Below, piece by piece: positions 4,356-31,130 of a stretch of 32,000 nucleotides of DNA (positions are counted from its first letter, which is position 1; each line of letters starts with the position of its first letter). Both the position numbers and the translations under genes were made by a program. The stretch is from Halomicronema hongdechloris C2206 (GTDB taxonomy: Bacteria > Cyanobacteriota > Cyanobacteriia > Phormidesmidales > Phormidesmidaceae). The notes beneath the pieces are model-generated. The model was given only the letters and a program-made list of their open reading frames with translations. It searched no databases and was not told the origin of the DNA. Location of the stretch: positions 540,001 to 572,000 of the forward strand of contig NZ_CP021983.2 of NCBI RefSeq assembly GCF_002075285.3, read 5' to 3'.

Positions 4356-4369
4356 ATGTACGACAGCCT

Positions 4370-5009: not shown

Positions 5010-5038
5010 GCTGATTGAGCGACTTGCTTGACCGGGAA

Positions 5039-5638: not shown

Positions 5639-5689
5639 TGCCTCTCTCCCGATGTATAACCGTTATTGCTTACTAGGGTTGTGCCTTTC

Positions 5690-6265: not shown

Positions 6266-6539
6266 CGAATGGCCTAAATATAGCGTATATCTAGGCGTTA
6301 TTTCGACTAGGCACTCTATATGTATGTAAACAGTACGAAAATACTGCCCGTGAGGTTTGTACGCAAGTCTAGCGCAAGACCTGTAATTTTCCGCCTGGTA
6401 ACCCTGATTAGTCGGGTATTAATCATTATCGGGTATTAGTCAGGGCTGGCATACAGTCTACTAACCTAGCGGACGCACATAGGCTCTGCAAGCGGACGAT
6501 GGCGCTGTATCCTAAGTGAGGATTGTCTGGGAGGACACT

Positions 6540-7259: not shown

Positions 7260-7509
7260 AGGTTACAAACCATGACAATTTGCCTGATCCTGAGGGGATA
7301 GTAATTTGCCCTAAGGCTTGATAGAAGGGGGGTTTGGCGACTTCGTAATACTTTCTTAAGGTGACTAGGACTGCCTAAGGAAGAGGAAACCCTTTATCCT
7401 AAGTTCTATATAGCCTGCGGCCTGCTTCAGTGCACTGTTGGGTAGCCAATGCGGATGGGTGTTTCGGCAAATCACCACTGACTGGCTTACACGACAGGAG
7501 ATTTTCCCT

Positions 7510-9036
7510 ATGAAACTGGCTTACTGGATGTATGCGGGTCCAGCCCATATTGGTACGCTGCGCATTGCCAGTTCGTTTAAGAATGTGCATGCCATCATGC
7601 ATGCGCCCCTGGGGGATGACTATTTCAATGTGATGCGATCCATGCTGTCGCGGGAGCGGGACTTCACTCCGGTGACGGCTAGTATCGTGGATCGCAAGGT
7701 GTTGGCTCGCGGCTCCCAAGAGCGGGTAGTAGATAATATCGTTCGTAAGGATCGGGAAGAAACGCCGGACTTGATTCTGTTGACCCCGACCTGCACCTCC
7801 AGTATTTTGCAGGAGGACCTACAAAATTTTGTAGAGCGAGCGAGTCTGGATGCCCAGGGAGATGTGCTACTCGCAGATGTCAATCACTACCGGGTAAATG
7901 AACTGCAAGCGGCGGATCGAACCCTGCATCAAGTGGTGGAGTTCTATCTACAGAAGGCCCGTAAGCAAGGCACGTTGCCTACGACGAAAACTGAGCGTCC
8001 GTCTGTCAATATTCTCGGCATGACGACGCTGGGCTTTCATAATAACCATGACTGTACTGAACTGAAAAAGCTGATGGGCGACCTGGGCATCGAGGTCAAT
8101 TTGGTGATGCCAGAAGGGGCCTCGGTCCATGAGTTGCACAAGTTACCCCAGGCTTGGTTTAACTTGGTGCCCTATCGAGAAATTGGGCCTCAGACCGCTG
8201 AGTATCTACGGGCAGAGTTTGAGATGCCCTGCTTAGATATTACGCCCATGGGACTGGTGGAGACGGCCCGTTGTATCCGGGCGATTCAATCGATCTTGAA
8301 TGACCAGGGGGCCGAGGTGGACTATGAACCCTTTATTGATGAGCAGACTCGGTTTGTCTCCCAGGCGGCTTGGTTCTCGCGTTCCATCGACTGCCAGAAC
8401 TTAACCGGCAAGAAGGCGGTGGTGTTTGGGGATAATACTCACGCTGCGGCCATGACGAAAATCTTGGCTCGGGAGATGGGGATCCATGTGGTGTTGGCCG
8501 GGACTTACTGCAAGTATGATGAGGCCTGGTTCCGCCAGCAGGTGGGCGAGTATTGTGATGACATTTTGATCAGCGATGACAATGGTGCGATCGCAGATGC
8601 CATTGCCCGCCACGAGCCTGCTGCCATCTTCGGTACCCAAATGGAGCGCCATGTGGGCAAACGCCTCGACATTCCTTGTGGGGTGATTGCCGCCCCCATC
8701 CACATTCAGAACTTCCCGGTCGGGTATCGCCCGTTTCTGGGTTATGAAGGGGCTAACCAGGTGGTAGATCTGGTCTATAACTCCTTCACCTTAGGCATGG
8801 AAGACCACCTGTTGGAGATTTTCGGCGGGCACGACACCAAAGAGGTGATTACCAAGACTGTCTCTGCCGATTCCGACTTGGTCTGGACTAAAGATGGGTT
8901 GGCGGAACTCAATAAGATCCCTGGCTTTGTGCGGGGTAAAGTGAAGCGCAATACCGAGAAGTTTGCCCGGGAACGGGGCTTCGGTGAAATCAATGCCGAG
9001 GTGCTCTATGCGGCTAAGGAGGCGGTAGGGGCCTAG
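7510..9036 (+). CDS. chlB: Light-independent protochlorophyllide reductase (DPOR) subunit B
   Basis: [58 protein letters not shown] is the canonical ChlB N-terminus. The length is 508 aa from ATG 7510 (SD acaggaga upstream). The longer track ORF from 7438 is an upstream extension. Confidence 0.95.
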
Positions 9037-12473: not shown

Positions 12474-12806
12474 TCAAAAGCTAGTACCGAACCCAAAGGA
12501 GGGATCGCCCATGGTTTCGTAGACTCGGACGCTGGGATTAGAGCCAGAGCCATCACTATCGTCTAGAAACCCATCGAGCCCAAGGTCTGAGAAGCTGAGA
12601 GTGTTCTCGTCTTCTGCATCGATGACTGCGTTGTTAATCTGCTCGGATACCTGATTGAACCGATTAGGATCGTAGGTATTTTCAGGGGTGCGGGGTTCTA
12701 GGGGACCTAATTTATCGGCATCATCGCTAACGGATTCAGCCAAGGCTGGTGACACACTGCACAAGACGAGACTCAGGGCGCTAGCGAGAACCAGAGGAGT
12801 CTGCAT
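12474..12806 (-). CDS. Hypothetical small secreted acidic protein (signal peptide)
   Basis: From ATG 12806: MQTPLVLASALSLVLCSVSPALA|ESVSDDADK..., a Sec-type signal with an ALA cleavage motif. The mature part is Asp/Glu-rich and ends GDPSFGFGTSF. No family recognised. The longer track ORF begins at 12845. Confidence 0.5.
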   Translation of the reverse strand: MQTPLVLASALSLVLCSVSPALAESVSDDADKLGPLEPRTPENTYDPNRFNQVSEQINNAVIDAEDENTLSFSDLGLDGFLDDSDGSGSNPSVRVYETMGDPSFGFGTSF

Positions 12807-13301
12807 GATAGGCACCTCGACGGCAGAGGACAAGCGAGACAACACGGACGTTATCCAGTCCAGCTTGGGATAGGCATGATCTGCCTGACTGGCCTGGGAC
12901 AGGGGAGAATCCTAGGGGCACTTGATGTCTCGGCCTTAGGCGCTAAGGAGATCCCAGGCCTACGCGATTCACTCGATGGTGAGGCAGGCAGGGCAGTGGG
13001 TTGGCGCTAACCGAGATCGGTCGCCTGAGCTGTGCCCAGTCCAGTTTGAGCTTGGCAGCTCCTCCTTGATGTAGACTCATGGTCAAGTAGACTCGCGGTC
13101 TAAATGTCAAGCAGGGGAGTATAGAGGGCTCAGGGCAATGACCCCTAGAACGGGCATCGATTAAGTCGGCTGCAAGTGTCTATCTAAGGTATACTGCAGC
13201 GTCTCGGTAAGTGGCTGCTCCCTTATCAAGGATTCATAAACTTTTTAGTGAGCATGCGATCGCAACCACGACCGAGCTCTGCCCATAGATATTCCTAGCA
13301 G

Positions 13302-14474
13302 CTAAGGCTGGGCACGAGAAAATAGGCGGAAATACAGGGCTTGACTGGCTTCTTTCAGGGGAAACACCAGGTAAGTCAGTGGATTAATGGTGATGATGAT
13401 ATTGCGGACATTGCGTTTCACTAAAGCCACCACTGCCCACGCTACCCAGTGAGCATCCATGACACCAATGGGGTTGAGCTGGCTCTTGAAGGGGCCCAGA
13501 ATAATCTTGCGCACCACACAGGGAGCATCAAGCCGCCGCAGGGTGACCAGCTGGCCCATCAATCGCTTGGAGATCTCGTAGAGAGGGCTGAAGGCCGGGC
13601 TGACTTCGGCTTCTGAGGTGTTTACCCAGAGTTCCTTGTTGGCTCGCTCAGCCGAGGTGTCGACCGTGCTGAAGAAGACTTCCATCAATCGCCACCCGGA
13701 GAGGGCATTGGCCGTTAAGGATTGCTCGACGGCGGCGGCATCGCGGGCCTCATGGACATTGAGGCCATGGTTGATGACGAGAATGTCTATTGATTTGAGG
13801 GCACTGCGTAGGTCAGCTTCAGCCCCCGGTTGCCAGGTGAGCACGTCAATGCCGGAGTCAAAGGAAGCCCGTTCTGAGCGCGTCAGGGCAATGGGACGGG
13901 CCTGGTGTTTGGCCAGTTCTGCCAGTAGGGCGCGACCCAGGGTGCCGGATGCTCCGGTCACGGCTACTCGTTTCCCTTTCAGGGAAACGGCTGTTCCCAG
14001 AAGTTTATCTACCACAGTGAAGTAGCCGGCATAGTAGGCAGTTGTATTGTCGAAGTGATGCCGCCAGTGATAGGTGCGGTTGACCAGCCAATTGCTGGGG
14101 CGCTGGGTCAGGGGGCCGGGTTCGTGGGTCAGATCGGTGGCCAACAGCCAGCCCTGAGAGCGGGCTAGAGCCGCCCCGAGAAAGCCCAGGCCATAGAGGA
14201 ATCCCAACCAGAAACCATAGTAGGGGGTCAGGGTTGCGATCGCAGCCATCACCGCCATCATCACCAGGGCTTCAGGCACATCATTATAGAGCTGGGCCTG
14301 GCGGTAAAGGGTTGAACTCACCGGCGTAAAGTCTTTCTTGTAGGCCCGATGATGCCAGGTGTGCAGCTGCATCAACGGTGGCCAATAATGGCTGGCGACG
14401 TGGTAGACGTCTCGCACAATTTCGACAACGACGATAGATACCAGACCCAATACAGCCTGCGTGATCAGCTCCAT
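13302..14474 (-). CDS. Bifunctional fatty-acid hydroxylase/sterol desaturase-like membrane domain fused to an SDR (NAD(P)-binding) domain
   Basis: His boxes HVASHYW, HTWHHRAY and HWRHHFD sit in the hydrophobic N-terminal half. The Rossmann motif VAVTGASGTLGRAL is in the C-terminal half. Confidence 0.8.
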   Translation of the reverse strand: MELITQAVLGLVSIVVVEIVRDVYHVASHYWPPLMQLHTWHHRAYKKDFTPVSSTLYRQAQLYNDVPEALVMMAVMAAIATLTPYYGFWLGFLYGLGFLGAALARSQGWLLATDLTHEPGPLTQRPSNWLVNRTYHWRHHFDNTTAYYAGYFTVVDKLLGTAVSLKGKRVAVTGASGTLGRALLAELAKHQARPIALTRSERASFDSGIDVLTWQPGAEADLRSALKSIDILVINHGLNVHEARDAAAVEQSLTANALSGWRLMEVFFSTVDTSAERANKELWVNTSEAEVSPAFSPLYEISKRLMGQLVTLRRLDAPCVVRKIILGPFKSQLNPIGVMDAHWVAWAVVALVKRNVRNIIITINPLTYLVFPLKEASQALYFRLFSRAQP

Positions 14475-14764
14475 AGTATGGTGAAGGCCCTGTTTACCGA
14501 GTAGACTGTTCCCCTGCCATTATTCCGGTAAACGCCTTGGAACTCAATGCGATTCCCCCCTAAATCCCCATAAGAATGGGCAATATGCCACAGACCCTGG
14601 ATCACCCAATCGCAACTCCATGGGCCGGTCGCCTATTGCCCCAAAATGGCAGCTGGCTACCATAGACCAACTGCTAGAACCAGTCAATTTATATTGTGTC
14701 CTGCTTGTGGACGAACATCAACAGTCCCGTGGGAAGATGTGGAGATACGGATTATAGAGTGCCT

Positions 14765-16630
14765 ATGGCTTCTTCCCTTGATGTTGCCCTGGAGACCGTT
14801 CGTCGTCGCGATCGCGTGTTCTTGCAGCAACAGGTACGCTACGACGGCGTGCAGGTGTTGCCCCAGATCTGGCCCCTGGCGGCCCAGCGCTTTGGCGATA
14901 CGGTGGCCATGCGGGATCCCCACGGTCAGCCCCCCGCCACCCTCACCTATCGGCAGCTGTGCGATCGCATCCTCACCTTTGCCAGTGGCCTGCAAGCCCT
15001 AGGGGTCAGCCAGGGAACCCATGTGGCCCTCTTTGCCGACAACAGCCATCGCTGGTTTATTGCCGACCAAGGCATCATGACTGCCGGCGGCGTCAATGCC
15101 GTGCGCAGCGCCATGGCCGACACCGAGGAACTCCTCTACATTGCCGAGCACAGTGATAGCACTGTCTTAGTAGTGCAAGACTTAGCCCTATGGCAGCGGC
15201 TGCGGCCCCACTTAGACCCACTCCCCATCCGCCAGGGAATCTTGCTTTCCGATCAACCGCCGCCCCAGGAAGAGTCCCTGAAGCTACTTTCCTTCCAGCA
15301 ATTGTTGGCCCTGGGCAACGACCACAGCTTGCAGGCGGTGACGACCCAGCCCGCGGATTTGGCCACCCTAATTTACACCTCAGGGACCACTGGCAAACCC
15401 AAGGGCGTCATGCTCACCCATGGCAACCTGCTGCACCAGATCAACCATTTTGGTGCCGCCGTGCAGCCCCAGGTAGGGGATGGGGTCTTGGGCATCTTGC
15501 CCTCCTGGCATAGCTTTGAGCGCACCGTGGAGTATTACCTATATTCCCAAGGCTGCAGTCAGACCTACACCACGATTCGCCATGTCAAGACCGACCTACG
15601 CCAGGCGCAGCCGCAATATATGGTGGGGGTGCCCCGACTCTGGGAGTCGATTTACGAGGGCGCCCAGAAGCAATTTCGCGAACAACCCCCCGGTAAGCAA
15701 CGACTGATCAACACGTTTTTCGGCCTCAGCCACCGCTACGTCAACCAGCACTGGCGCTATCAAGATCTACAGCTAGACGAACCGCATCTCTCCCCGGGGC
15801 AGCGGCTATGGGCAGGGGTAATGGCGGCGGTCCTATGGCCCTTGCACCAATTGGGTAAGCGACTAGTTTACGGCAAAGTGCGGGCGGCCACCGGCGGTCG
15901 AGTCAAGCAGCTGATCAGCGGTGGTGGCTCCCTGGCCCGTCATATCGATGTGTTCTTCGAGATTGTCGATGTGCCCTTACTGGTGGGCTACGGCCTCACC
16001 GAAACCTCACCAGTGCTGTCGGTTCGTCGTCCCTGGCGTAATCTGCGAGGGGCCTCGGGCCAGCCTATCCCCCAGACGGAATTGAGAGTGGTTGATCCCG
16101 ACAGTCGCCAGGATTTGCCCCAGGGACAAAAAGGCTTAGTGCTAGCTCGTGGTCCTCAAATCATGGCCGGATACTACAAAAATCCGGAGGCAACAGCCAA
16201 GGTCCTCGATCCCGAGGGCTGGTTTGACACCGGCGATTTGGGCTGGTTGACCCACGACTACAACCTGGTGCTGACGGGGCGAGCCAAAGATACCATCGTC
16301 CTCACCAATGGCGAAAACATCGAGCCTCAACCGATTGAAGATGCCTGTGTCCGCAGCCCTTACATTGACCAGATCATGCTGGTGGGTCAAGATCAGCGCT
16401 CCTTAGGGGCATTAATTGTCCCCAATTTGGAGGCCCTAGACCAGTGGGCCGCCAGTCAAGGCCGCTATCTGCAGGTTGCCGGCAAGGACGATGAGGTGCC
16501 CCCCGAGATGCCCCCGATTTCCTTAGAGGACGAAGCGGTGCAGGCTCTCTTTCGCCGTGAGTTGACCCGTCAGGTGAAGGACCGGCCTGGCTATCGCCCT
16601 GATGATCGAATTGGGCCCCCTTCCAGCTGA
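14765..16630 (+). CDS. aas: AMP-dependent long-chain acyl-ACP/CoA synthetase (Aas-like); the reading frame breaks before the conserved C-terminus
   Basis: AMP-binding motif IYTSGTTGKPKGVMLTHGNL and GYGLTETSP, TGDLG. ATG 14765 (MASSLDVALE...) is preferred over the upstream GTG 14696. The ORF stops at 16630 just after a G3C5 run; the conserved tail continues in another frame (next feature). Confidence 0.8.
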   Translation: MASSLDVALETVRRRDRVFLQQQVRYDGVQVLPQIWPLAAQRFGDTVAMRDPHGQPPATLTYRQLCDRILTFASGLQALGVSQGTHVALFADNSHRWFIADQGIMTAGGVNAVRSAMADTEELLYIAEHSDSTVLVVQDLALWQRLRPHLDPLPIRQGILLSDQPPPQEESLKLLSFQQLLALGNDHSLQAVTTQPADLATLIYTSGTTGKPKGVMLTHGNLLHQINHFGAAVQPQVGDGVLGILPSWHSFERTVEYYLYSQGCSQTYTTIRHVKTDLRQAQPQYMVGVPRLWESIYEGAQKQFREQPPGKQRLINTFFGLSHRYVNQHWRYQDLQLDEPHLSPGQRLWAGVMAAVLWPLHQLGKRLVYGKVRAATGGRVKQLISGGGSLARHIDVFFEIVDVPLLVGYGLTETSPVLSVRRPWRNLRGASGQPIPQTELRVVDPDSRQDLPQGQKGLVLARGPQIMAGYYKNPEATAKVLDPEGWFDTGDLGWLTHDYNLVLTGRAKDTIVLTNGENIEPQPIEDACVRSPYIDQIMLVGQDQRSLGALIVPNLEALDQWAASQGRYLQVAGKDDEVPPEMPPISLEDEAVQALFRRELTRQVKDRPGYRPDDRIGPPSS

Positions 16631-16740
16631 TAGGGGAGCCATTTTCCATCGAGAATGGCCTGTTAACCCAGACGCTCAAGCTGAGACGGGCCGTGGTGAT
16701 GGAGCGGTATCGCGGTATGATCGACGCGATGTTTGCTTAG
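16621..16740 (+). other. Frame-displaced conserved C-terminal segment of the Aas-like synthetase
   Basis: The -1/+2 frame from 16621 reads FQLIGEPFSIENGLLTQTLKLRRAVVMERYRGMIDAMFA*. This is the typical adenylate-forming enzyme tail, including the A10 lysine (TQTLKLRR). Confidence 0.7.
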
Positions 16741-16832
16741 CCTGTGTTGCATCGTGGGCATTGAGCAACCATCGCCGCTGGCGTGTAGCTGTGCGGTGTG
16801 TGTAAAGACATGTCCCTTGACCTAGCCAGACT

Positions 16833-17270
16833 ATGGACGTTTCTCAATCTCAACTGCTTCTGAAGCGGGTAATAACCATCAAAGCTGTCGTCACCCCACT
16901 CTGGAAGGAAGAGGCGCAAAAGCAACTGCAAAACCAGATCAACCAACTCGATAGTCGCTTGCAACAACTGGAGATGCAAGGACAGCGTATGGTGTCGGAA
17001 CTGCAGAAGCAGTCTTCTGATACGGCTACGCAGCAAGTGTCAGACGTGCAAACCAAACTCAACCAAGATAAAAGCAAACTGCTACAGCAAAAAAATCAAG
17101 TATTGCAGCAGCTCCAGACAGTACAGACTCTAGAGCTCAACCAAGAGGTCGATCAAGGGAAGGTGGAAAGTTTCTTCAATGTCAATGTCGGGGATAACTT
17201 AATTCGTAAGTTGCAGGTGGAAATCTTGCTGCGGGATGGCGTGATCGAGGAAATTCGCGGCGAGCTCTAG
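16833..17270 (+). CDS. YlqD-family coiled-coil protein
   Basis: 145-aa ORF. LLLKRVITIKAVVTPLWKEEAQKQLQNQINQLD...VEILLRDGVIEEIRGEL matches my recollection of cyanobacterial YlqD-family proteins. Confidence 0.55.
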   Translation: MDVSQSQLLLKRVITIKAVVTPLWKEEAQKQLQNQINQLDSRLQQLEMQGQRMVSELQKQSSDTATQQVSDVQTKLNQDKSKLLQQKNQVLQQLQTVQTLELNQEVDQGKVESFFNVNVGDNLIRKLQVEILLRDGVIEEIRGEL

Positions 17271-17401
17271 GCCTCCATTAGGAGCGGCCCCAATTCTTAC
17301 GGATTTGACTGACCTGCCACCATTCCCGAGGCGCCCAGGGGATACAATGATCCCTTGGCGCCTTTGCTATCTGTGTCGATTGCTGTCTCGGAAGCCACCT
17401 C

Positions 17402-18712
17402 ATGATTCGAGAAATTTTCATGCCCGCCCTCAGTTCCACCATGACCGAAGGCAAGATTGTCGCTTGGGAAAAGTCCCCTGGGGATTGGGTGGACAAAGGT
17501 GAAACCGTCGTCATCGTCGAGTCCGATAAGGCAGACATGGATGTGGAAGCCTTCTATGAGGGCTACCTAGCTACTGTGATAGCAGAGGCGGGGGATACGG
17601 TGCCGGTGGGTAATGCGATCGCACTGTTAGCCGAAACCGAGGCCGAGATCGACACCGCCAAGCAGCAGGCCAGCGCCCAAGCCAGCGCCGGTGCCAGTGA
17701 CAGTGCCACTACGGCGACGGCCCCCGCTAAGACAGCTCCTGCTCCGGAACCGATCCCGTCAGAACCGGCGGACAACAATGGAGCCACTGGCACCAGCACT
17801 ACAGGGACAGCCAGTGGCCGCCTGATCGTCTCCCCCCGGGCCCGCAAGTTGGCCAAAGATCTGAAAGTGGATCTCAGCACCATCCAGGGCAGCGGGCCCC
17901 ATGGCCGCATCGTGGCCCAAGATGTAGAGCGGGCCGCTGGCAAAGTCCCCACTTCCCCCGGGCCAGACACCATCCCCACCCCGGCAGCTGCCCCCGCCCC
18001 AGCCGCCCCGGCAGCCCCGACGCCAGCGCCGGCAGTGGCTGGTCAGGTGGTGCCGATGAATACCCTGCAGCAAGCCGTCGTCCGGGGCATGGTGGCCAGT
18101 CTATCGGCGCCCACCTTCCATGTGGGCTACACCATCACCACCGACGCCATGGATGCCCTCTATAAACAGATCAAGGGCAAGGGGGTGACGATGACTGCCC
18201 TGTTGGCCAAGGCAGTGGCCGTGACCCTGCAAAAGCACCCGCTACTCAACGCCTGCTACGCCGACCAGGCCATTCAATATTTCGGTCAGATCCATGTGGC
18301 GGTGGCGGTGGCCATGGACGATGGCGGCTTGATTACACCGGTGTTGCAGCGAGCCGACCAGCTCGATATCTATTCCCTGTCGCGCGCTTGGAAGGATCTG
18401 GTAGCCCGAGCCCGCAGCAAGCAGCTGCAGCCAGAAGAGTACAACTCTGGCACCTTCACCCTGTCTAACTTGGGTATGTTTGGGGTAGATCGCTTCGATG
18501 CGATTTTGCCGCCAGGCCAGGGGGCAATTTTGGCCATTGGGGCTTCCCAGCCCACGGTAGTGGCCAACGACGACGGCATGTTGGGGGTGAAGCGGCAGAT
18601 GCAAGTCAATATCACCTGTGACCACCGGGTGATCTATGGCGCCCACGCCGCCGCCTTCTTGCAGGATTTGGCCCAGCTGATCGAAACCAATCCCCAGTCA
18701 TTGACCCTCTAG
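17402..18712 (+). CDS. pdhC: Dihydrolipoamide acetyltransferase (pyruvate dehydrogenase E2)
   Basis: Lipoyl domain MPALSSTMTEGKIV...VESDKADMDVE, Ala/Pro linkers, E3-binding SPRARKLA, catalytic DHRVIYGA. Confidence 0.92.
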   Translation: MIREIFMPALSSTMTEGKIVAWEKSPGDWVDKGETVVIVESDKADMDVEAFYEGYLATVIAEAGDTVPVGNAIALLAETEAEIDTAKQQASAQASAGASDSATTATAPAKTAPAPEPIPSEPADNNGATGTSTTGTASGRLIVSPRARKLAKDLKVDLSTIQGSGPHGRIVAQDVERAAGKVPTSPGPDTIPTPAAAPAPAAPAAPTPAPAVAGQVVPMNTLQQAVVRGMVASLSAPTFHVGYTITTDAMDALYKQIKGKGVTMTALLAKAVAVTLQKHPLLNACYADQAIQYFGQIHVAVAVAMDDGGLITPVLQRADQLDIYSLSRAWKDLVARARSKQLQPEEYNSGTFTLSNLGMFGVDRFDAILPPGQGAILAIGASQPTVVANDDGMLGVKRQMQVNITCDHRVIYGAHAAAFLQDLAQLIETNPQSLTL

Positions 18713-19771: not shown

Positions 19772-20074
19772 ATGACGGACGAGCAAGACAATACGACCCC
19801 TCAACCCGAGGAGCAGCCTCAAGCCCGGGAAGAAGCGCCTGCGGCAGAGGCCCCAACCTCTCCCTCGACCGAGGATGAGGAGACGATAACTGATGCCGCC
19901 GCCTCTGAACCCGAAACGCCAAACACAGCTGCAGAGCCCACCCCTGCCTTTGGCTGGACCGCCTATGCCGAACGCATCAATGGCCGCTTTGCCATGGTTG
20001 GTTTTTTGGCTTTACTGATCCTTGAGTTCTTCACCCACCAAGACTTTTTCACCTGGATTGGGCTGCTTAACTGA
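19772..20074 (+). CDS. High-light-inducible protein (CAB/ELIP/HLIP family) with a long acidic Pro/Glu-rich N-terminal extension
   Basis: The C-terminal FGWTAYAERINGRFAMVGFLALLILEF is the Hlip chlorophyll-binding helix (ExxNGRxAMxGF). It is preceded by about 60 low-complexity residues. Confidence 0.8.
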   Translation: MTDEQDNTTPQPEEQPQAREEAPAAEAPTSPSTEDEETITDAAASEPETPNTAAEPTPAFGWTAYAERINGRFAMVGFLALLILEFFTHQDFFTWIGLLN

Positions 20075-20313: not shown

Positions 20314-20574
20314 CTAGAATAGCCTCTCGCCAGCAGAGGTTTCCCAAAACATTGAGCCTAAATTCTGATGACGACGCTTCAATGCCTGTTGATGACGGGG
20401 GACACTGCTTTTGGAAATTCCGGTGGCGGCGGCGATTGATCGAATTGTTTGAGAGCCCTTGTCTGCCAGCCTCGCTGCGATTTGCTGATAGTGATCGTCG
20501 TATCCTCGGAATCGTCTTTGAGGATACGATACTGTCCCTAGCGCTCTATCGCGGGAGCATCTCATCGTCAGCAT
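20314..20574 (-). mobile_element. Orphan transposase-like N-terminal HTH fragment (remnant)
   Basis: GC-rich ORF piece ...SYPQRRFRGYDDHYQQIAARLADKGSQTIRSIAAATGISKSSVPRHQQALKRRHQNLGSMFWETSAGERLF*. The HTH pattern (SxRxIAxATGISKSSVxRH) is typical of transposase/resolvase N-termini. No catalytic domain follows in any frame. It sits exactly at the compositional junction. Confidence 0.3.
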
Positions 20575-21247
20575 GTTTAAATTTCCCATAGTTGAGCATT
20601 TTAGGCTCAAACGCATATCCTAAAAACTCAACAACTTTCTTAATAGCCGTAGATGTATCCTCTACTAAATCTTCATAGCGGACTATAAGTTTATGGCTAG
20701 GTTTAAGGTTATCTGCGACTTCAAGTACGGATTTATTATATCTGTACCAAATCTCTAATCCTCTCTTTGGATTATTGATAAACCAAGGACTCATAGCAAC
20801 TGAGCGTGCATCTCTAACGAGATGGATCAGTTTAAAGTCTGCGAAATCCTGATAAATTTTATCTAAGAAAAGGGATTGTCTAGGCTCTTTTATTACGACA
20901 GATTTTTTCTTTTCTTTTCGGCGAATTTTCTGAAATAGATGCTGGGGATTTCCTTTGCAGAGATAAAAATTCGCAGAATAATAATCACATATTTGCTTGT
21001 ATTTTTCATTAACGGTTTTTCGCTTCCAGTCCCTGCGGAAATACTTCGGAAATGCAATTTCACAAGGTGCCGAAATTTTAGAGTGGGAATCTAGAATCCG
21101 AATTAACATGGTTGATCCGCTTCTAGGCGAACAACCAATGAACGCAATTCTATTATCCCTGATAGTCTGAGGTTGGATTAGACTCGTCGCAGGATCAGAA
21201 TAAGTTAATATAGTAGATGTAAGCTTACTGATACTTTCTCTAAGCAT
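20546..21247 (-). CDS. Sulfotransferase-family protein (PAPS-dependent), probably 3'-truncated at the island junction
   Basis: 5'-PSB loop IGCSPRSGSTML and 3'-PB-like HLVRDARSVAMS. The last roughly 9 codons (HADDEMLPR*) are encoded by GC-rich flank DNA. Confidence 0.75.
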   Translation of the reverse strand: MLRESISKLTSTILTYSDPATSLIQPQTIRDNRIAFIGCSPRSGSTMLIRILDSHSKISAPCEIAFPKYFRRDWKRKTVNEKYKQICDYYSANFYLCKGNPQHLFQKIRRKEKKKSVVIKEPRQSLFLDKIYQDFADFKLIHLVRDARSVAMSPWFINNPKRGLEIWYRYNKSVLEVADNLKPSHKLIVRYEDLVEDTSTAIKKVVEFLGYAFEPKMLNYGKFKHADDEMLPR

Positions 21248-21364
21248 TAGCCCAATATTCTTAAGAACTTTCTAAGTTACTAATTACTGTAAGTAGGCTG
21301 TATATTTCGATAATAAGATAGATTGTTATCTACAAGGAACGACATCAAATGTGGGCATAAACCC

Positions 21365-22465
21365 TTAAATTATTAGGGACTTATATGCCTGTATGGTTTG
21401 CTCGGCAGCCTTTTCCCACGTGAAATCTTGTACTCTTTGCTGACCCTTGGAAATTAGACGTTCTCTTTCTAGGGGATGATTAAGTAGAAGTAGCAGTAGA
21501 TCTGCTAAGTCTGTGGGAGAGTTAGGATTGAATAAAAAACCAGCATCGCCCACAATTTCAGGAAAACATGAAGCCTTAGAGGCAATAACTGGCGTTCCAC
21601 ATGCCATTGCTTCTAACAGCGGTATTCCAAAGCCTTCGTAGAGAGAAGGGTACACAAAGGCAACACTACATCTATAAAGCTTAGCGAGATGATGATCACT
21701 AACATTCTCGAAGACTTCTATAGCACTACCTATCTTAAGTGAATTAACCATCTCTTGTTCGCTTTTATTAAGAGGCCTTCCTACAACGCAAAGTACAGCA
21801 TCTGACTGTAAACTCAAGATCTTTGAAAATGCCTTCAGTAAAACCTGAAAATTCTTATAGTTTAAGTTACGGGAACCTACATATAAAAAATATGGACGAG
21901 ACGGAATGGCTTCGGGACCATAAGACATGCTTTCATTCAAATCAGTTGCATGATAGATTACTTTTAGCTTATCCTCGGGGACAGAATATCTTTCTAAAAT
22001 ATCTTGCTTCGTGTTTTCTGATATACAAATGATTAGATCAGCAGCTTGAGCGGCCCTCAGCTTCACTTTCGCAACCTGCCCTAAAGGATCCATTTGCTTC
22101 GAAAATATTTCATGGACCATATCATGGAAGGTTACAACTACAGGCTTACCATAACTCTTTAAATCTTGACCAGTATGAGACCAATAGTAAGTTGGATGAA
22201 TCAAGTCAAACTCTGCAATTGCTGTTGCTAACCTTAGGAAATTGCTACCCAGAGGTTCAAAGAGGCGTTTTGGTTTATTATTAGTGAACGGATAAAAATA
22301 TTTTATTAGCCCTGGATGTTCTGGATAAATAACTTGATTGGAGCGATAACCTGTTATGATAGGACTGAAATCTTTAGGAAGTGCTTCAACAAGGTTTTTA
22401 AAGTAACGACTAATACCACCTCGGGTCTGGAGTTTATATATCAAGCCGTCATATAGAATATGCAT
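21365..22465 (-). CDS. Glycosyltransferase family 4 (GT-B, group 1)
   Basis: 366-aa ORF. The C-terminal EGFGIPLLEAMACGTPVIAS (E-x7-E region) is typical of GT4. Confidence 0.85.
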   Translation of the reverse strand: MHILYDGLIYKLQTRGGISRYFKNLVEALPKDFSPIITGYRSNQVIYPEHPGLIKYFYPFTNNKPKRLFEPLGSNFLRLATAIAEFDLIHPTYYWSHTGQDLKSYGKPVVVTFHDMVHEIFSKQMDPLGQVAKVKLRAAQAADLIICISENTKQDILERYSVPEDKLKVIYHATDLNESMSYGPEAIPSRPYFLYVGSRNLNYKNFQVLLKAFSKILSLQSDAVLCVVGRPLNKSEQEMVNSLKIGSAIEVFENVSDHHLAKLYRCSVAFVYPSLYEGFGIPLLEAMACGTPVIASKASCFPEIVGDAGFLFNPNSPTDLADLLLLLLNHPLERERLISKGQQRVQDFTWEKAAEQTIQAYKSLII

Positions 22466-22574
22466 AGAATCTCAACCATATTAAACTCTGCGGTAGACTT
22501 TCTAATATTAAATGCGAGATTGTTATCCCTAAAAACTAGAACTTTTGGCGAAAAATTTGTTTAATCTATTATTT

Positions 22575-23663
22575 TTATTCGACTTGCTGTAGGCATCTAG
22601 AAGCTGGAAAGTCTTTAGTATATTTAGAAAATAATGATGAAAAATGAAATTCATCAAATTCTCCGCCTATATCAACTGTGATCCACTCACTTTTATCTAG
22701 ATTAAACATGTGAAAATGAGGATAATAAAACTTAATGCCACTCGACAAAAAACCTGGCCAGTGAGAAAAAGAACTATTACCGATAACTAGGATATCTGCA
22801 ACAGCCATATGATGAATTGCCTCCATTGCTGGCTCATTGCAATGGAATATTAGATTATTACTAGAGATAGAGTGTAACTCTCTTTTAAGAGAATTCATCT
22901 CTTTTTCAGATCCAGATGAATATATATGAAACTCATGAAAATCACTTTTAATGAGTCTGTTCAGCTTCGATAATAACGCTTTATAATAAGATAATGGTAA
23001 GAAGCGCTGGTTTTCGACTGATGCATCATCTCTTCTTATGTGAACAGCTATATTAATGGCGTCTGGATTAAAATAACACTTTTTCATCGAGTGCTTTTTT
23101 CCAAAATATTTTCTCTTAAGTTTCTGAATGACCCTACTATAAAGATTAGGATCTATTTTACCTTGTCTACCCCAATCATAAATTTGATAGAGCATTACTC
23201 TGATCCCTTTCTGGAAGCAGAATATAACTTCCCTATTCTTATTGTCTTGATTGAAAATCTTTTCAAAGTATTCAAGTGGAGAACCATCCCAAAAGTTAGG
23301 ACGTCGCCATTGACGTAATTCCTTAATTGGGGATTTCTTTAAGGTGGAATGGACTCTGTATTCCAGCCATTCAATATGTCGAATGGCAAATCTGGATTGA
23401 GGATTCAAATGCCTAATCCCTAAAAATGGGGTACATGATATGATTGGCAAGTCTTTTCTAAAGTCCTCGGAGAAGATTATTTCATCTTCACCAAAACCGA
23501 AAAAATCTTCCCATTTTCCCTGCGGTAAAGGGCTGTGAAGGTATTTTAAGTTATGCCATTCTGCGAGGATAAAACCAGTTATTAAATCATCAAGCTTATG
23601 CCCGATTCTGTGCCCAGAGTTTGGGATAACGGTGATATAACTAGTATTTAATTTTTGAGTCAT
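22575..23663 (-). CDS. Putative GT11-like (alpha-1,2-fucosyltransferase-like) glycosyltransferase, divergent
   Basis: IAVHIRRDDAS resembles GT11 motif I (HxRRGDY). ADILVIGNSSFSHWPGFL resembles the GT11 IIxNSSFSWWxAxL motif. N-terminal NSGHRIGHKLDDLITGFILAE stands in place of GGLGNQmFqYA. Confidence 0.5.
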   Translation of the reverse strand: MTQKLNTSYITVIPNSGHRIGHKLDDLITGFILAEWHNLKYLHSPLPQGKWEDFFGFGEDEIIFSEDFRKDLPIISCTPFLGIRHLNPQSRFAIRHIEWLEYRVHSTLKKSPIKELRQWRRPNFWDGSPLEYFEKIFNQDNKNREVIFCFQKGIRVMLYQIYDWGRQGKIDPNLYSRVIQKLKRKYFGKKHSMKKCYFNPDAINIAVHIRRDDASVENQRFLPLSYYKALLSKLNRLIKSDFHEFHIYSSGSEKEMNSLKRELHSISSNNLIFHCNEPAMEAIHHMAVADILVIGNSSFSHWPGFLSSGIKFYYPHFHMFNLDKSEWITVDIGGEFDEFHFSSLFSKYTKDFPASRCLQQVE

Positions 23664-23710
23664 AATTTAAACTTTTTAAGCAAATTACCTATCCTTAGTG
23701 CTTAAAATAT

Positions 23711-24553
23711 TTAGACTATATAATTTAGCTTTGATAAAGAGTCGGAAGCAGTTTGGAGAAAATACTTTTGAATTTCTATTGGCATTTCATCTTTGTATGA
23801 GCCGGCTTTGCCTCGACGTGCGAAAAGCTTATCTTTAGGCCAAGCTGGATTGTTCATTCCAAATTTCATCTCTTTAGAACGCATCTTATTGAATGCTGTT
23901 TGCCGCTCAATTTCTTCGAGGCGATATCTAGGAGCATCAAAGCCAATAAATTTACAAATATTCTCGAGTTCCCCTACGAAATTATGAAGCATATCTTCAT
24001 ATTTTATCAGAATTAAATCTGCTCCATAGGGATTTTTAAGCCAGGCCTCCACGTGTTCATGCCAAAGCTTTTTTTGAAACAAGCCGTCTTTCTCGAGCAG
24101 TAATTGCTCAAAACTAATGTCGATTCCTTGCCGTTCTCTTAAGACCTTTAAGTAGTAGAAATAAGAGACCATTACGTCCCGGCCATCACGAACAATATAT
24201 ATGACCTTTCTATAGTCTGGCCTCGGAAAACTATGAGACTTAAACACCATAGAAGTTCGATAGCGTCTATAGTAACGTTTATAGTGTACATCTGGAATCA
24301 AATCCTGAATTACAGAATCAGGCGTGAATTCTGGATTTACACCATATATAAGTCCAGCTAATATATTCTGAAACCATGTATTCCCTGATTTTGGGTAACC
24401 GACAATGAATATGTCATTGTCGAAAAACTCTGATATAGGAATGGTTTCCGTAAATGTTCGAATTCTCTGATCAATTTTGGCGCTTACCATTCTTCTCACT
24501 GGCTTAGTAAGGGGTTTCAAGAGAGGAATAGAATCGATCATACTAAAATCCAT
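23711..24553 (-). CDS. Sulfotransferase (Sulfotransfer_1-like, PAPS-dependent)
   Basis: 5'-PSB YPKSGNTWFQNIL, 3'-PB IVRDGRDVMVSYF and C-terminal RRGKAGSYKDEM (RKGxxGxWK-type) motifs. Confidence 0.85.
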   Translation of the reverse strand: MDFSMIDSIPLLKPLTKPVRRMVSAKIDQRIRTFTETIPISEFFDNDIFIVGYPKSGNTWFQNILAGLIYGVNPEFTPDSVIQDLIPDVHYKRYYRRYRTSMVFKSHSFPRPDYRKVIYIVRDGRDVMVSYFYYLKVLRERQGIDISFEQLLLEKDGLFQKKLWHEHVEAWLKNPYGADLILIKYEDMLHNFVGELENICKFIGFDAPRYRLEEIERQTAFNKMRSKEMKFGMNNPAWPKDKLFARRGKAGSYKDEMPIEIQKYFLQTASDSLSKLNYIV

Positions 24554-24900
24554 TTCTTTTAAGGGATTTGTTAGCTTAAATCAATATCATAATATACTAA
24601 AATGTAATGACCAAGCTATTTGACACTATTTAAAAAGCCAAGTCTTTACGATTTCATCTTGGTCTTTAAGTTGATATAAAATTTTGAATTTATTCTGTTA
24701 TTTATTTGGGAGTTACCAACCAAAATGGGTTTTCATTAATTAAATGTATGTAAAGAATATGTTAAATTCTTATAGATACTATTTAGGGGATATTGCATTG
24801 AGTGGAAGTGTTTGCTTTTAGAACCTTGAAATATATTAGAGAGACTAGATAAATGTTCGAAAGATTGATCTATCAGGTTAATCAACACTCGAAGCCAATA

Positions 24901-25887
24901 TCACTTTAATAAATTAGATACTAGTTTCTTCCCACTAGCTTCTAGATGAACTATTCTTGGATAAAATTTGCTCCCAGGTAAAGAGGAAAAATAGTGAAAG
25001 TATATTTGTGGGTTAAAAGGATCAGCGTCTAAAGAGAGCCTTAAGTACTTTTTCCCTAAAGTGACGGCTTCTTCATGATTAATTGCACTGCCATGACATA
25101 ACAAGCGCCGACCAATATTGAAGAGGTAGTTAGCTTTTTGTGGTAGAGAAAATGATCCAATACTTCGATATTCGCTAAATAGCTTAGAGTGATGCTTCTG
25201 AAGAAAATGTAGATATCCTTCAACAACAGCACTATGATTGATAGAACCTCGATTTTTGTCGCTATGGTCACGATATTGAACGAGTGGTTCTGGAATCAGG
25301 TCAAACTCACAATTATGTGCAAGTTGCAGCCATATATCCCAGTCTTCACAACATCTCAAGCGTGTATCAAATCCTAAGGTTTTCTCAATGTAATTCCTTT
25401 TTATCATTGGTGTGGAAGGAGTGCCAATGAAATTTGAATATAGTAAGTCTTGTTCTATATTGCCATGTAAACTTGGTTTTCTTAGTTTTTGGAATTGAGC
25501 ATTTATATCAACAACTTTTAGCCAAGTATAAATAACGCCAATTCGCTCATTGGCTTCATTGAATCGATCAATCTGTCTCTGTAATTTGTCAGGCATCCAT
25601 TCATCATCAGAATCTAAAAAGGCAACGTACTCTCCTTTTGCCTGTGCTAGCCCTGTATTTCTAGCAGCGCATACCCCCATATTTTTGTTGTGCTTTATAT
25701 ACTTTATACATGACTCATAGAGGCGATCAATTGTTGCTGTTGTCTGATCCGATGAGGCGTCATCTACAATGATGAGTTCGAAGTTGCTAAATGTTTGCTT
25801 TAATACACTTTTGATGGCTTTTTCTAAGAGAACTGCTCGATTATAAGTAGGTATGATAACACTGACAATAGGGTCTCTGTCTGGCAT
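24901..25887 (-). CDS. Glycosyltransferase family 2
   Basis: VSVIIPTYNRAVLLEKAIKSVLKQTF..ELIIVDDASSD and FLDSDDEW (DxD) motifs. Confidence 0.9.
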   Translation of the reverse strand: MPDRDPIVSVIIPTYNRAVLLEKAIKSVLKQTFSNFELIIVDDASSDQTTATIDRLYESCIKYIKHNKNMGVCAARNTGLAQAKGEYVAFLDSDDEWMPDKLQRQIDRFNEANERIGVIYTWLKVVDINAQFQKLRKPSLHGNIEQDLLYSNFIGTPSTPMIKRNYIEKTLGFDTRLRCCEDWDIWLQLAHNCEFDLIPEPLVQYRDHSDKNRGSINHSAVVEGYLHFLQKHHSKLFSEYRSIGSFSLPQKANYLFNIGRRLLCHGSAINHEEAVTLGKKYLRLSLDADPFNPQIYFHYFSSLPGSKFYPRIVHLEASGKKLVSNLLK

Positions 25888-26611
25888 GAAAATTCATCTC
25901 CTAAAATAGATGATGAAAAATATTTTGAGGGACTAACTATGATCATCCAGTCGCTAGAGTGGCTTCGGCTCTTCTGGGTTTGTGACTGAAACTGTATCTC
26001 AGGGCACAATATTTGCCTGATTCGGAGGCTGAAGCCCTTGCCAGACAGCACATAAGTCCCACTTATCACCCAATACTCAGAAGAGCTGTGGCTTCCTATA
26101 TATGAGACGTTTGTCTATTTTGAATGACTGATAAACGTCGAGATAATAAAAGCGGCTTTAACTTGCTCTGCTTAAACAGCACTAAACTATTACAGGATAG
26201 ATGACTCTTTTGACCATCGTCTTAGTTATCGATGGAGATTCGATGAAGCTTGGCTTGGATGTAGAAAAGATTTTGTAAATTACTTGCTCTTCAGCGCTTA
26301 CTAGGACTCAATTGCCCTCTGCTCTAGCGAGTTATTCCCTAACCTAAACATCTATATTTAACTATGAGATCAAGATGATCTACCTGCCTGAATTTTAGTA
26401 AACCAAAGCAAGTGAAAATACGAAGTATCGATCGTCGCGGTACAAAGTTACAGATGCCAAGAGCATATGTGAATTATGTTGAGGTCTTGGTACTGCTCTC
26501 TCGGATTGCCATACTGAATGATTGCCGACAATCTGGCATCAGAAAACCTATTTATAATTGTCTGCAGGTAATCTGATGGTGGACGACATAATTCAGCTAT
26601 GCTGGAGTCTC

Positions 26612-27070
26612 CTACAACTTCATTTGTACGGAGGTTGCTTCTGGCTCTATATCCCCTAAGAAGGCCATAGCTTTCTTCTGCATCATCTTGAAGATGTTGT
26701 AGAACCCGTTGGCTCTAGAGGGAGTGAGGCTGACATCGAGTTGGGTTTCTTTGATAAAGTCTGGTGTTAGGTCGATGACTTCTTGGGGAGTGAGGCCATT
26801 GAGTGCCTTAATCAGTAAGGCAACCAGTCCCTTAGTGATCTGGGCATCTGAATCAGCTTGATAGTGCATCTTGCCATCTTGTAGGTCAGCTATGACATAG
26901 ACCTGAGAGACGCAGCCTGGCACTTTATTATCGGGTACCTTAGCCGCTTCGGGAAGTGGCTCTAGTTTCTTGGCAAACCAGAGTAATTGCTCATAGCGTC
27001 GCTTGGGATCTGAAGCTCGTTGAAAACGATTAACGATTTTGTTGATGGAAGCAGGACGAGAAGCAGCCAT
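26612..27070 (-). CDS. sufE: Cysteine desulfuration protein SufE
   Basis: 152-aa ORF. RYEQLLWFAKKL...VPGCVSQVYV (active-site Cys) is typical of SufE. Confidence 0.9.
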   Translation of the reverse strand: MAASRPASINKIVNRFQRASDPKRRYEQLLWFAKKLEPLPEAAKVPDNKVPGCVSQVYVIADLQDGKMHYQADSDAQITKGLVALLIKALNGLTPQEVIDLTPDFIKETQLDVSLTPSRANGFYNIFKMMQKKAMAFLGDIEPEATSVQMKL

Positions 27071-27145: not shown

Positions 27146-27409
27146 TCAGCCATCGGCTTGGCTATCTTTGCTGGCCACAAAGCGATGGGCTACTGTTTCC
27201 GGCTGGATTGCTGACAGAATGACATGACCTGAATCAGTGATGATCACGGCCCGAGTCCGGCGACCATAGGTAGCATCGACTAGCTGCCCTCGCTCGCGAG
27301 CGTCGGAGATGATGCGCTTGATCGGTGCCGACTCTGGGCTAACGATGGCAATCACTCGGTTCGCTGACACGATGTTGCCAAAGCCAATATTGATCAGCTT
27401 GATGTCCAT
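27146..27409 (-). CDS. remA: DUF370 / RemA-family protein
   Basis: 87 aa. [67 protein letters not shown] is the highly conserved RemA/DUF370 sequence. Confidence 0.88.
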
Positions 27410-30101: not shown

Positions 30102-31130
30102 GTGCAGACCTACGACAATCCCAAGATCCGATACGAGTGGTGGGCGGGTAATGCTCGCTTCGCCAATCTGTCAGGGCTATTCATCGCCGCCCATGCGGCT
30201 CAGGCGGCCCTGATTACCCTGTGGGCAGGGGCATTTACCTTGTTTGAGATATCCCGCTATAGCGCCGAGGTCCCCATGGGGGAGCAAGGGTTGATCCTAC
30301 TGCCCCATTTGGCCACGTTAGGCTTTGGTGTGGGTGAAGGGGGGCAAGTCGTCACGACGTATCCATTCTTCGTTATCGGCGCCATTCATCTGATTTCATC
30401 GGCCGTGCTAGGGGCAGGGGGGCTGTTCCATGCCCTGCGGGCTCCCAGCGACTTGAAAGACGCCAAGGGGATTGCCCGGCGTTTCCATTTCGACTGGGAT
30501 GACCCGAAGCAATTGGGCATTATTCTTGGTCATCATCTCCTGTTTTTAGGCATGGGTGCCCTGTTATTGGTGGGCAAAGCCATGTATTGGGGCGGGCTGT
30601 ACGATGCCGCCTCTGAAATGGTGCGAGTTGTGACTCAACCCACTCTAGATCCCTTGGTGATCTACGGGTATCAGACGCACTTTGCCAGCGTCGACAACCT
30701 TGAGGATCTCGTCGGTGGTCACATCTATGTGGGGCTACTGTTGATTGCCGGAGGCATCTGGCATATTGTGCGGGAACCTCTGCCCTGGGCTAAGCGGGTG
30801 CTAATTTTCTCTGGAGAAGCGATTTTGTCTTACTCTCTGGGGGGCATTGCCCTGGCAGGGTTTGTGGCTGCTTATTTCTGTGCAGTGAATCCTTTGGCCT
30901 ATCCGGTTGAGTTTTATGGGCCGTTGCTGGAGGTTAAATTTGGGGTCAGCCCTTATTTTGCCGACACCATAGAGTTGCCGATGGGAGCCCATACGGCCCG
31001 GTGTTGGTTGGCTAATGCCCACTTTTTCCTGGCCTTCTTCTTTTTGCAGGGCCATCTGTGGCACGCTCTACGGGCCATGGGCTTCGACTTCCGGCGGGTA
31101 GAGAGGGCTCTCAGTGCCGTTGAGGGCTAA
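30102..31130 (+). CDS. isiA: Iron-stress-induced chlorophyll-binding protein IsiA (CP43') / Pcb-family antenna
   Basis: 342 aa from GTG 30102 (SD ggagg at 30091-30095). [49 protein letters not shown] is the IsiA/Pcb N-terminus. The length shows it lacks the large lumenal loop of CP43. Confidence 0.9.

Follow-up and report, generated by a model that had tools for sequence, protein, structure and literature searches.

The window considered here is a 32,000-nucleotide stretch of the genome of the cyanobacterium Halomicronema hongdechloris C2206 (contig NZ_CP021983.2, positions 540,001 to 572,000). Within it, an AT-rich island of five genes, all carried by the minus strand, lies between the gene of a high-light-inducible protein and sufE (Table 1). 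In transcription order, these genes encode a family 2 glycosyltransferase (GT2), a sulfotransferase (ST1), a glycosyltransferase without assigned family (called GTx below), a family 4 glycosyltransferase (GT4) and a second sulfotransferase (ST2). A preliminary description of this DNA had recognized the five co-oriented open reading frames (ORFs), as well as a gap of about 350 bp after the first of them. Both are recovered here, and the gap measures 347 bp.

Table 1. Features of the island and of its borders, in coordinates of the window (PAPS, 3′-phosphoadenosine 5′-phosphosulfate)
Feature	Position	Strand	Description
High-light-inducible (CAB/ELIP/HLIP) protein gene	19772-20074	+	Core gene, left flank; Chloroa_b-bind E = 7e-6; G+C 0.57
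DUF6399-family remnant	20317-20487	-	57 codons; residues 10-66 of a 534-aa protein; 49% identity over 57 aa, E = 2e-10
ST2	20546-21247	-	233 aa, 3′-truncated; Sulfotransfer_3/Sulfotransfer_1; PF13469 E = 2.4e-21, 77.5 bits (above gathering score)
GT4	21365-22465	-	366 aa; GT-B fold; PF00534 E = 1e-38, PF13439 E = 7e-20
GTx	22575-23663	-	362 aa; unclassified GT-B enzyme, fucosyltransferase-like superfamily
ST1	23711-24553	-	280 aa; full-length PAPS-type sulfotransferase; PF00685 E = 1.4e-32, 113.6 bits (above gathering score)
Gap between GT2 and ST1	24554-24900		AT-rich, non-coding, 347 bp; G+C 26-33%
GT2	24901-25887	-	328 aa; first gene of the block; PF00535 E = 6e-39
Leader between sufE and GT2	25888-26611		AT-rich, non-coding; G+C 0.35-0.49; right end of the island
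sufE	26612-27070	-	Core gene, right flank; Pfam SufE E = 3e-44

Composition and gene content of the island

The block extending from 20558 to about 26600 has a G+C content of 36%, against 56% in the flanks. Windows of 500 bp range from 29 to 40% across 20501-26500 and from 45 to 65% over the remainder, the flanks being at 51-65%. With 2-kb windows, the mean is 0.359 in the block and 0.558 ± 0.027 outside, and the two ranges are fully separate (Mann-Whitney p = 3e-6). In tetranucleotide usage, the block lies at an L1 distance of 0.70 from the core, versus 0.22 ± 0.03 outside (maximum 0.32). Codon usage is also different. The G+C content at third codon positions (GC3) ranges from 0.30 to 0.35 across the five island genes, most core genes being at 0.60-0.72. 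AGA accounts for 40% of the arginine codons in the island versus 3% outside, ATA for 33% of the isoleucine codons versus 4%, and TTA for 33% of the leucine codons versus 9%. The foreign composition proposed in the preliminary description is thus confirmed by each of these measures.

At 100-bp resolution, G+C falls from about 20575 and recovers near 26600. The limits initially proposed, 20546-26100, do enclose AT-rich DNA and need adjustment: on the left, the composition changes abruptly at 20557/20558, within the 3′ end of ST2, and the right end lies at about 26600, at the stop codon of sufE. The composition of sufE itself is intermediate (G+C 0.47, GC3 0.50), under that of other core genes. 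The HIP1 motif (GCGATCGC) occurs at 19 sites in the window, where 0.56 would be expected by chance, with none between 19106 and 27071, as noticed earlier. At the density of the flanks, the island should contain about 4.8 sites, and the Poisson probability of finding none is 0.008. The accompanying caveat, namely that 3.7-8.6 kb is also poor in HIP1, is correct as well: 3688-8586 is a second stretch free of HIP1, with a somewhat lower G+C content (0.45-0.59). Its genes (DinB family, dCTP deaminase, cobO, RNase PH, chlB) are housekeeping genes and do not look foreign.

No tRNA, integrase or flanking direct repeat was found at the borders of the island, the direct and inverted repeats being limited to short, chance-like pairs. 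Inside the island, searches for Rfam families and tandem repeats were negative, and promoter and terminator scans remained at chance level. Nothing bearing on the block was found in publications about the genome of H. hongdechloris or its islands.

Four of the five genes are assigned to the families first proposed for them by Pfam matches above threshold; for the fifth, GTx, the proposal stands at the superfamily level only. GT2 is of the soluble WcaA/TuaG/PglI-like type, its best NCBIfam similarities being TuaG, WcaA and PglI, all under cut-off. GT4 carries the EX7E motif as EGFGIPLLE. We take GT2 and GTx to be inverting enzymes and GT4 to be a retaining one. ST1 displays the 5′-phosphosulfate-binding motif (5′-PSB, PKSGNT), the 3′-phosphate-binding motif (3′-PB, VRDGRDV) and the glycine-rich GKAGSYK segment. 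In ST2, the 5′-PSB (PRSGST) and 3′-PB (VRDARSV) motifs are present. The claim that both sulfotransferases keep their PAPS-binding motifs is therefore right as regards 5′-PSB and 3′-PB, and has to be completed by the C-terminal truncation of ST2. None of the five proteins contains a transmembrane or hydrophobic segment, so that the island products are soluble and presumably cytoplasmic. The leader upstream of GT2 is presumed to be the promoter region of the block; its ORFs gave no family hit. A match to PF20706 ('GT4-conflict') prompted consideration of a role in anti-phage defence, which was rejected since none of the five proteins matches the PADLOC models. Finally, among the ORFs of the window that were scanned (the 1263-aa ORF at 1-3789 and small ORFs were left unscanned), no exporter, polymerase or PAPS-supply gene was detected.

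GTx, an unclassified branch of a fucosyltransferase-like superfamily

In H. hongdechloris C2206, GTx corresponds to XM38_005520 (protein accession ASC69624.1), with 100% identity. The preliminary description had called it a fucosyltransferase-like, GT11-like enzyme. At the level of the superfamily, this view is supported by sequence motifs and by structure. The family alignment of GTx keeps HIRRDD (HxRRxD) and D..L....SSFS (NSSFSHW), and we regard HIRRxD and D..L....SSFS as marks of the GT11/GT23/GT65 fucosyltransferase superfamily. An AlphaFold (AF2) model of GTx (pLDDT 87, pTM 0.86), compared with PDB folds, has POFUT1 as its closest match (E = 1.7e-6), followed by FUT8, with a probability of 1.0 and TM-scores of only 0.40-0.45. 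A search of the PDB with the GTx profile, based on sequence only, returned FUT8 as the best match, at a non-significant level (E = 1.3).

Membership of GT11 itself is not supported. GTx of the window has no Pfam or NCBIfam match and does not reach the gathering score of PF01531 (GT11). Among its homologues, 11 out of 26 match PF01531, weakly, the best E value being 3.7e-6. A GTx profile search of 1.84 billion representatives collected 5463 relatives, mostly via the C-terminal nucleotide-binding half; when ten of them were scanned for GT11, one was at threshold, one gave a weak match and eight gave none. We therefore place GTx in the fucosyltransferase-like GT-B superfamily, as a branch without classification that is related to GT11, GT23 and GT65. 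The HxRRxD and SxFS motifs and the GT-B fold, which it shares with the GT11 alpha-1,2-fucosyltransferases FutC and WbsJ as well as with GT23 and GT65, define this superfamily and not GT11 alone. Unlike FutC and WbsJ, GTx remains under every Pfam threshold, and its close family is small: only 27 homologues among 5.8 billion proteins, every named one being cyanobacterial. The label 'GT11-like' is acceptable for a resemblance, not for membership. Concerning the sugar transferred, some related clusters contain rmlABCD, for dTDP-rhamnose synthesis, and not GDP-fucose genes. Judging from these neighbouring genes, rhamnose would be as good a candidate as fucose.

Homologous clusters and the missing exporter gene

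The gene neighbourhoods of GTx homologues were compared with the window; they are designated by L-numbers, L003 being Baaleninema simplex. The closest homologues belong to clusters on cyanobacterial contigs of 40-48% G+C, with HIP1 sites inside the cluster. L001, on a 318-kb contig (locus at 40% G+C, HIP1 sites inside the cluster), has the order GT4, GT2, ST, ATP-binding cassette (ABC) exporter, ST1, GTx, GT4, and L005 the order GT4, GT2, ABC exporter, ST1, GTx, GT4. The GT2, ST1, GTx and GT4 proteins of the window are 59-73% identical to their L001/L005 orthologues, with gene order kept. GT2 is 61% and GT4 73% identical to the L001 orthologue, and ST1, at an equal cluster position, is 72% identical to those of both L001 and L005. 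GTx and GT4 are adjacent in seven loci besides the window (L001, L002, L003, L004, L005, L169 and L172), and in Baaleninema simplex and L169 they are followed by a sulfotransferase gene (286 aa), which is the order at the distal end of the window. GTx is the signature gene of this cluster type.

The exporter of these clusters is a fusion of ABC_membrane and ABC_tran domains, 578-609 aa long. Its gene stands between GT2 and ST1, at the place of the gap of about 340 bp found in the window and in L002, a metagenome contig described below. It is present in five of the seven informative contexts (L001, L005, L006, L168 and L172) and absent within 10 kb in L169; L171, truncated by an insertion sequence, allows no call. 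In a neighbour-joining tree of GTx, the window and L002 are sister to L001 and nested inside the exporter-bearing clusters. The identities between exporters (75% for L001-L005, 64% for L001-L172, 50% for L001-L006) parallel those between the GTx proteins. Because the window and L002 nest within the ABC-bearing clusters and have a gap at the position of the exporter, parsimony argues for a loss of the exporter from the locus in the Halomicronema lineage. The 347-bp gap would then be a deletion scar, the direction of loss being deduced from the tree. Searches of the 347-bp gap and of the 724-bp leader for traces of an ABC exporter, of the extra sulfotransferase and of the upstream GT4 gave chance-level matches only.

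For all five cluster exporters, PglK is the top-scoring family, followed by HepA and MsbA, with about 300-350 bits where the equivalog cut-offs are at about 1000. PglK is also the best full-length half-transporter match of the cluster exporter in the PDB (E = 1e-74). According to the family descriptions, PglK is the lipid-linked-oligosaccharide flippase of Campylobacter, HepA is linked to the polysaccharide of the heterocyst envelope, and MsbA is a flippase for lipid A. Neither Wzx nor Wzy nor a polysaccharide copolymerase (PCP) was found in the scanned window ORFs or among the Pfam families of nine related loci. The island had been viewed as a portable decoration module. It is not self-contained: the block is a reduced version of a cyanobacterial cluster that is conserved and bears an exporter.

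Other recurrent neighbours in the related loci are further sulfotransferases, rmlABCD, genes for the synthesis of 3-deoxy-D-manno-oct-2-ulosonic acid (Kdo), GT61, PMT_2-family GT-C enzymes, an MBOAT protein with a carrier protein, and pectate-lyase-fold and giant PA14/Calx-beta proteins. L172 has a full Kdo set, namely kdsD, kdsB, kdsA and kdsC. In some related clusters (L001, at 12526-17727, and L172, at 4694-6157), there are genes for an FkbH-like protein, for a phosphopantetheine carrier protein of 84 aa and for an MBOAT protein. By analogy, this set resembles a Dlt/AlgI-type system that would acylate an exported glycan. As far as literature searches show, the cluster type with sulfotransferases, the GT11-like GTx, GT4 and a PglK/HepA-like ABC exporter appears to be uncharacterised.

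An exporter orthologue elsewhere in the genome

The preliminary description had noted the lack of Wzx/Wzy, ABC exporter and PAPS-supply genes. This is correct among the scanned ORFs of the window; at the scale of the genome, an exporter orthologue is encoded elsewhere. A search with the L001 exporter retrieved a 600-aa protein of H. hongdechloris, ASC72660.1 (P0195), with 64% identity and 98% coverage, which is the level of identity of the L172 cluster exporter. The accessions of this protein and of GTx (ASC69624.1) are 3036 apart, so its gene would lie about 3000 genes from GTx on the 5.58-Mb chromosome.

ASC72660.1 pairs with an 87%-identical metagenome protein (P0193), and this divergence is of the size expected if the latter came from the lineage of L002. 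In the exporter tree, the two proteins stand beside the L001/L005 clade and inside L172. The ratio of FYMINK to GARP residues in ASC72660.1 is 1.39, to be compared with 1.22-1.55 in orthologues from genes of 41-46% G+C and 0.5-0.9 in host core proteins. From this indirect evidence, the exporter gene is probably also AT-rich and foreign.

A sister lineage with the island at the same site

The island is not strain-specific. The 7.2-kb contig L002 carries NFACT, RemA, SufE, GT2, a 337-bp gap, ST1, GTx and GT4, ordered as in the window, with a comparable G+C contrast (0.56 versus 0.28-0.41). Nucleotide identity between the window and L002 is 87% in the core flank and 80-83% in the island. As the site beside sufE is shared, the island was already there before the split of these two species-level lineages. 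Among the island genes, the ratio of nonsynonymous to synonymous substitution rates (dN/dS) was computed for GT2, GTx and GT4. In this two-sequence comparison, the values are 0.086, 0.080 and 0.155, respectively (0.106 for sufE and 0.029 for remA); the three glycosyltransferase genes have thus been under purifying selection.

Downstream of GT4, the window and L002 share nothing; L002 continues with other AT-rich DNA, without ST2. The leader is also poorly conserved between them (56-76% identity, with many gaps). The 3′ two-thirds of GT4 (750 nt, 21412-22161) are 95-97% identical to L002, as compared with 81-93% in the core flank and 77-86% in the remaining island. Moreover, GT4 has a dS of 0.23, where GT2 and GTx have about 1.25, and homology breaks off at the stop codon of GT4. 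The sequences suggest that the distal end of the island, with the 3′ part of GT4, has recently undergone recombination or an exchange of cassettes.

A scan with the NFACT protein (one genome per species) gave 80 loci with at most 68% identity, in which the NFACT-RemA pair is widespread, SufE comes next in about 22 and synteny is broken beyond sufE. SufE, a syntenic core gene that forms the conserved side on which the island is attached, has 90% amino-acid identity in L002 and 67-79% in relatives. In the approximately 22 relatives with NFACT-RemA-SufE, there is no ST1, GTx or ST2 beside sufE, and neither the gene of the high-light-inducible protein (hlip) nor the Fer4-MBL gene is found there. 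A metagenome scan with the Fer4-MBL protein yielded 80 further loci, of at most 77% identity, with no hlip-sufE adjacency and no closer relative. The RemA-family protein of the window (27146-27409, minus strand) is encoded two genes away from the island, and its family is named after extracellular matrix/biofilm regulators. This closeness is probably coincidental, because the NFACT-RemA pairing is kept in relatives devoid of the island.

The left border: truncation of ST2 and a DUF6399 remnant

Homologues of ST2 are 269-286 aa long and run about 58 residues past the end of the window protein, which reads ...HADDEM followed by LPR and a stop codon. The missing part includes the conserved WGTSGKG segment, which aligns with the glycine-rich GKAGSYK of ST1. 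Homology stops at 20558, exactly where G+C climbs, and the last three codons and the stop codon are junction DNA. In a tblastn search with the 286-aa ST2 homologue of Baaleninema, residues 29-225 were covered and no more. ST2 is probably inactive, as judged from its sequence. Since it is truncated, the working set more likely consists of three glycosyltransferases and one sulfotransferase.

Beside the junction lies a remnant of a DUF6399-family gene, found by tblastn against plasmids; a word-based homology search had given nothing. The full-length homologue combines Pfam DUF6399 with an N-terminal helix-turn-helix, and the remnant keeps the helix-turn-helix part alone. Its G+C content is about 0.5, unlike that of the island. 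Genes of the DUF6399 family are multicopy on Acaryochloris plasmids, and this copy number is the reason for considering that they may encode a transposase; no mention of DUF6399 was found in the literature. We see in this remnant the probable relic of a mobile element, which would have cut off the 3′ end of ST2 before being largely deleted in its turn.

Proposed origin and function, and alternative explanations

Taken together, the island is real and foreign, and it is probably functional. The overall reading that we favour, with some reservation, is that of a horizontally acquired, cut-down island that would assemble or tailor a sulfated oligosaccharide exported in trans. The source would be a cluster of a lower-GC filamentous cyanobacterium with the organization GT4, GT2, (ST), PglK/HepA-like ABC exporter, ST1, GTx, GT4, (ST). 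Insertion beside sufE would have occurred before Halomicronema split from its sister lineage. In the Halomicronema lineage, the exporter gene would have been lost, leaving the 347-bp gap; in the window strain, the distal sulfotransferase gene is truncated as well, beside the probable relic of a mobile element. What is left is a set of four intact genes (GT2, ST1, GTx and GT4) for soluble, presumably cytoplasmic enzymes. These enzymes would work on the cytoplasmic side of the membrane, on a glycan linked to a lipid, to which three sugars would be added, GTx probably transferring a 6-deoxyhexose, either fucose or rhamnose. ST1 would sulfate the product with PAPS, and the product would be flipped and exported by ASC72660.1, the best candidate, or by another host transporter. 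In this scheme, the lipid-linked nature of the substrate, the identity of the donor sugars, sulfation itself and the role of an exporter in trans are inferred. The acceptor or final location may be a glycolipid resembling lipopolysaccharide, a capsule or exopolysaccharide, or a glycoprotein. We propose only tentatively, as a possibility that goes further, that the island and ASC72660.1 belong to a single pathway, horizontally acquired and now divided between two loci. It would be an uncharacterised, cyanobacteria-restricted route to sulfated glycoconjugates, in which a glycan is assembled and sulfated in the cytoplasm on a lipid carrier and then flipped by an ABC transporter of the PglK/HepA type, without reliance on Wzx/Wzy as for synechan. 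GTx, its signature enzyme, would represent a new glycosyltransferase family with a distant relationship to GT11.

Several points weigh against the idea of a functional island served by a distant exporter. Neither of the two 80-locus scans contains an empty-site relative with hlip next to sufE, and the insertion event is thus unobserved. No priming phosphoglycosyltransferase, ligase or PAPS-supply gene was found in the window or in most related loci. ASC72660.1 would be linked to the island through orthology, and its branch position is only roughly congruent with the GTx tree. The dN/dS values come from two sequences, with dS uneven over the island (0.23-1.28). The departure of the exporter from the locus and the truncation of ST2 are signs of decay, and the AGA, ATA and TTA usage, very poor for the host, could limit translation. 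In addition, ST1 of L002 (3364-4183) is split into ORFs of 167 and 92 aa by three 1-bp deletions. These may reflect a real pseudogenisation or an assembly error, the latter being possible because two of the three sit in short homopolymer runs.

The signs of decay, the split ST1 of L002, the foreign codon usage and the mobile-element remnant at the border would all suit a decaying relic that has lost its exporter, makes no product and is turning into pseudogenes. We consider this unlikely, without dismissing it: GT2, GTx and GT4 are intact in two lineages whose core DNA is 13% apart, with dN/dS as low as that of sufE (0.11), ST1 of the window is intact with all its motifs, and an orthologous exporter is present in the genome. 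It might also be imagined that the block is native, its low G+C resulting from a local mutational or regulatory constraint on surface-glycan loci. Surface-polysaccharide loci are often AT-rich relative to their genome, the island occurs in both known members of the lineage, and no tRNA, integrase or flanking direct repeat accompanies it. Against this, the 20-point drop in G+C has sharp edges, one of them inside a truncated gene. HIP1 is absent from the island, the closest homologues reside in cyanobacterial contigs of 40-48% G+C with HIP1 inside the cluster, and about 22 relatives with RemA-SufE are devoid of the island. A native origin is therefore very doubtful.

Other alternatives concern the substrate. 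Protein O-fucosyltransferase 1 is the best structural match of GTx, and related clusters adjoin genes for giant PA14/Calx-beta, Laminin_G or pectate-lyase-fold proteins and for PMT_2-family glycosyltransferases. The enzymes might thus glycosylate and sulfate a secreted or surface protein, with GTx as a protein O-glycosyltransferase. This is improbable, because the TM-scores are low and FUT8, which acts on glycans, matches nearly equally, because the motifs of GTx are common to the whole GT11/23/65 superfamily, because the window contains no such giant protein and because the ABC exporters resemble those of lipid-linked oligosaccharides and polysaccharides. We give least credit to the tailoring of a small natural product, such as a sulfated glycolipid or a glycosylated secondary metabolite. 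L001 has FkbH, carrier protein and MBOAT genes next to the cluster and, according to the literature, cyanobacterial natural products such as aeruginosins can be sulfated. However, no nonribosomal peptide synthetase, polyketide synthase or lipid-synthesis gene adjoins the island, and what recurs beside the cluster at other loci is rmlABCD, genes of Kdo synthesis, additional glycosyltransferases and glycan-type ABC exporters.

Relation to known systems

In cyanobacteria, sulfotransferase genes are mostly found in polysaccharide clusters of the Wzx/Wzy or ABC type that are 'more or less partial', and such enzymes are common in species of saline habitats (Maeda et al., 2021; PMC8205485), which fits the halophilic H. 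hongdechloris. The island, with its sulfotransferase genes clustered with glycosyltransferase genes, is one case of these partial clusters; it differs from those surveyed in that the window copy lacks any membrane component. The xss cluster of Synechocystis, responsible for synechan, had been put forward as a precedent. The comparison is a loose one. Like the island, xss combines two sulfotransferases with several glycosyltransferases on foreign or accessory DNA, in that case a megaplasmid, and a sulfated extracellular glycan is produced from it (PMC8205485). In contrast, xss depends on Wzx, Wzy and PCP and has the regulators XssQ/R/S, none of which was found in the scanned window ORFs or in the Pfam lists of the related loci, and it has no GT11-like signature enzyme.

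The PglK, Wzk and HepA pathways of Campylobacter, Helicobacter and Anabaena, respectively, can also be compared with the island. As in these pathways, soluble GT2 and GT4 enzymes would build the glycan on the cytoplasmic side before flipping, and the exporters of the related clusters have PglK as their top match. The Helicobacter pathway also uses fucosyltransferases. The differences are that the exporter scores lie far under the equivalog cut-offs, that sulfation is included, that no oligosaccharyltransferase or ligase was identified and that the window locus lacks an exporter.

To our knowledge, sulfated polysaccharides are rare in bacteria outside cyanobacteria, and only one biosynthetic cluster, xss/synechan, has been dissected. 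The locus described here and its relatives point to a second type of sulfated-glycan cluster, recurring across filamentous cyanobacteria, in which one could look for novel sulfated glycans as well as sulfotransferases of defined acceptor. In Halomicronema, its copy can also be regarded as a natural experiment, asking whether a glycan-assembly module stays functional after the loss of its exporter from the locus, using one in trans. For the biology of H. hongdechloris, the significance is modest: an accessory surface-glycan island, of a kind common in bacterial genomes.

Other features of the window

The ORF at 1-3789 (minus strand, at least 1263 aa) runs past the left end of the window, and its C-terminus resembles a response-regulator receiver domain. 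On the other side of the island, the IsrR antisense RNA (RF01419, 117 bits) is found at 30495-30672 on the minus strand, inside an isiA-like (CP43′) gene at 30102-31130 on the plus strand; we take the two to be the known iron-stress regulatory pair.

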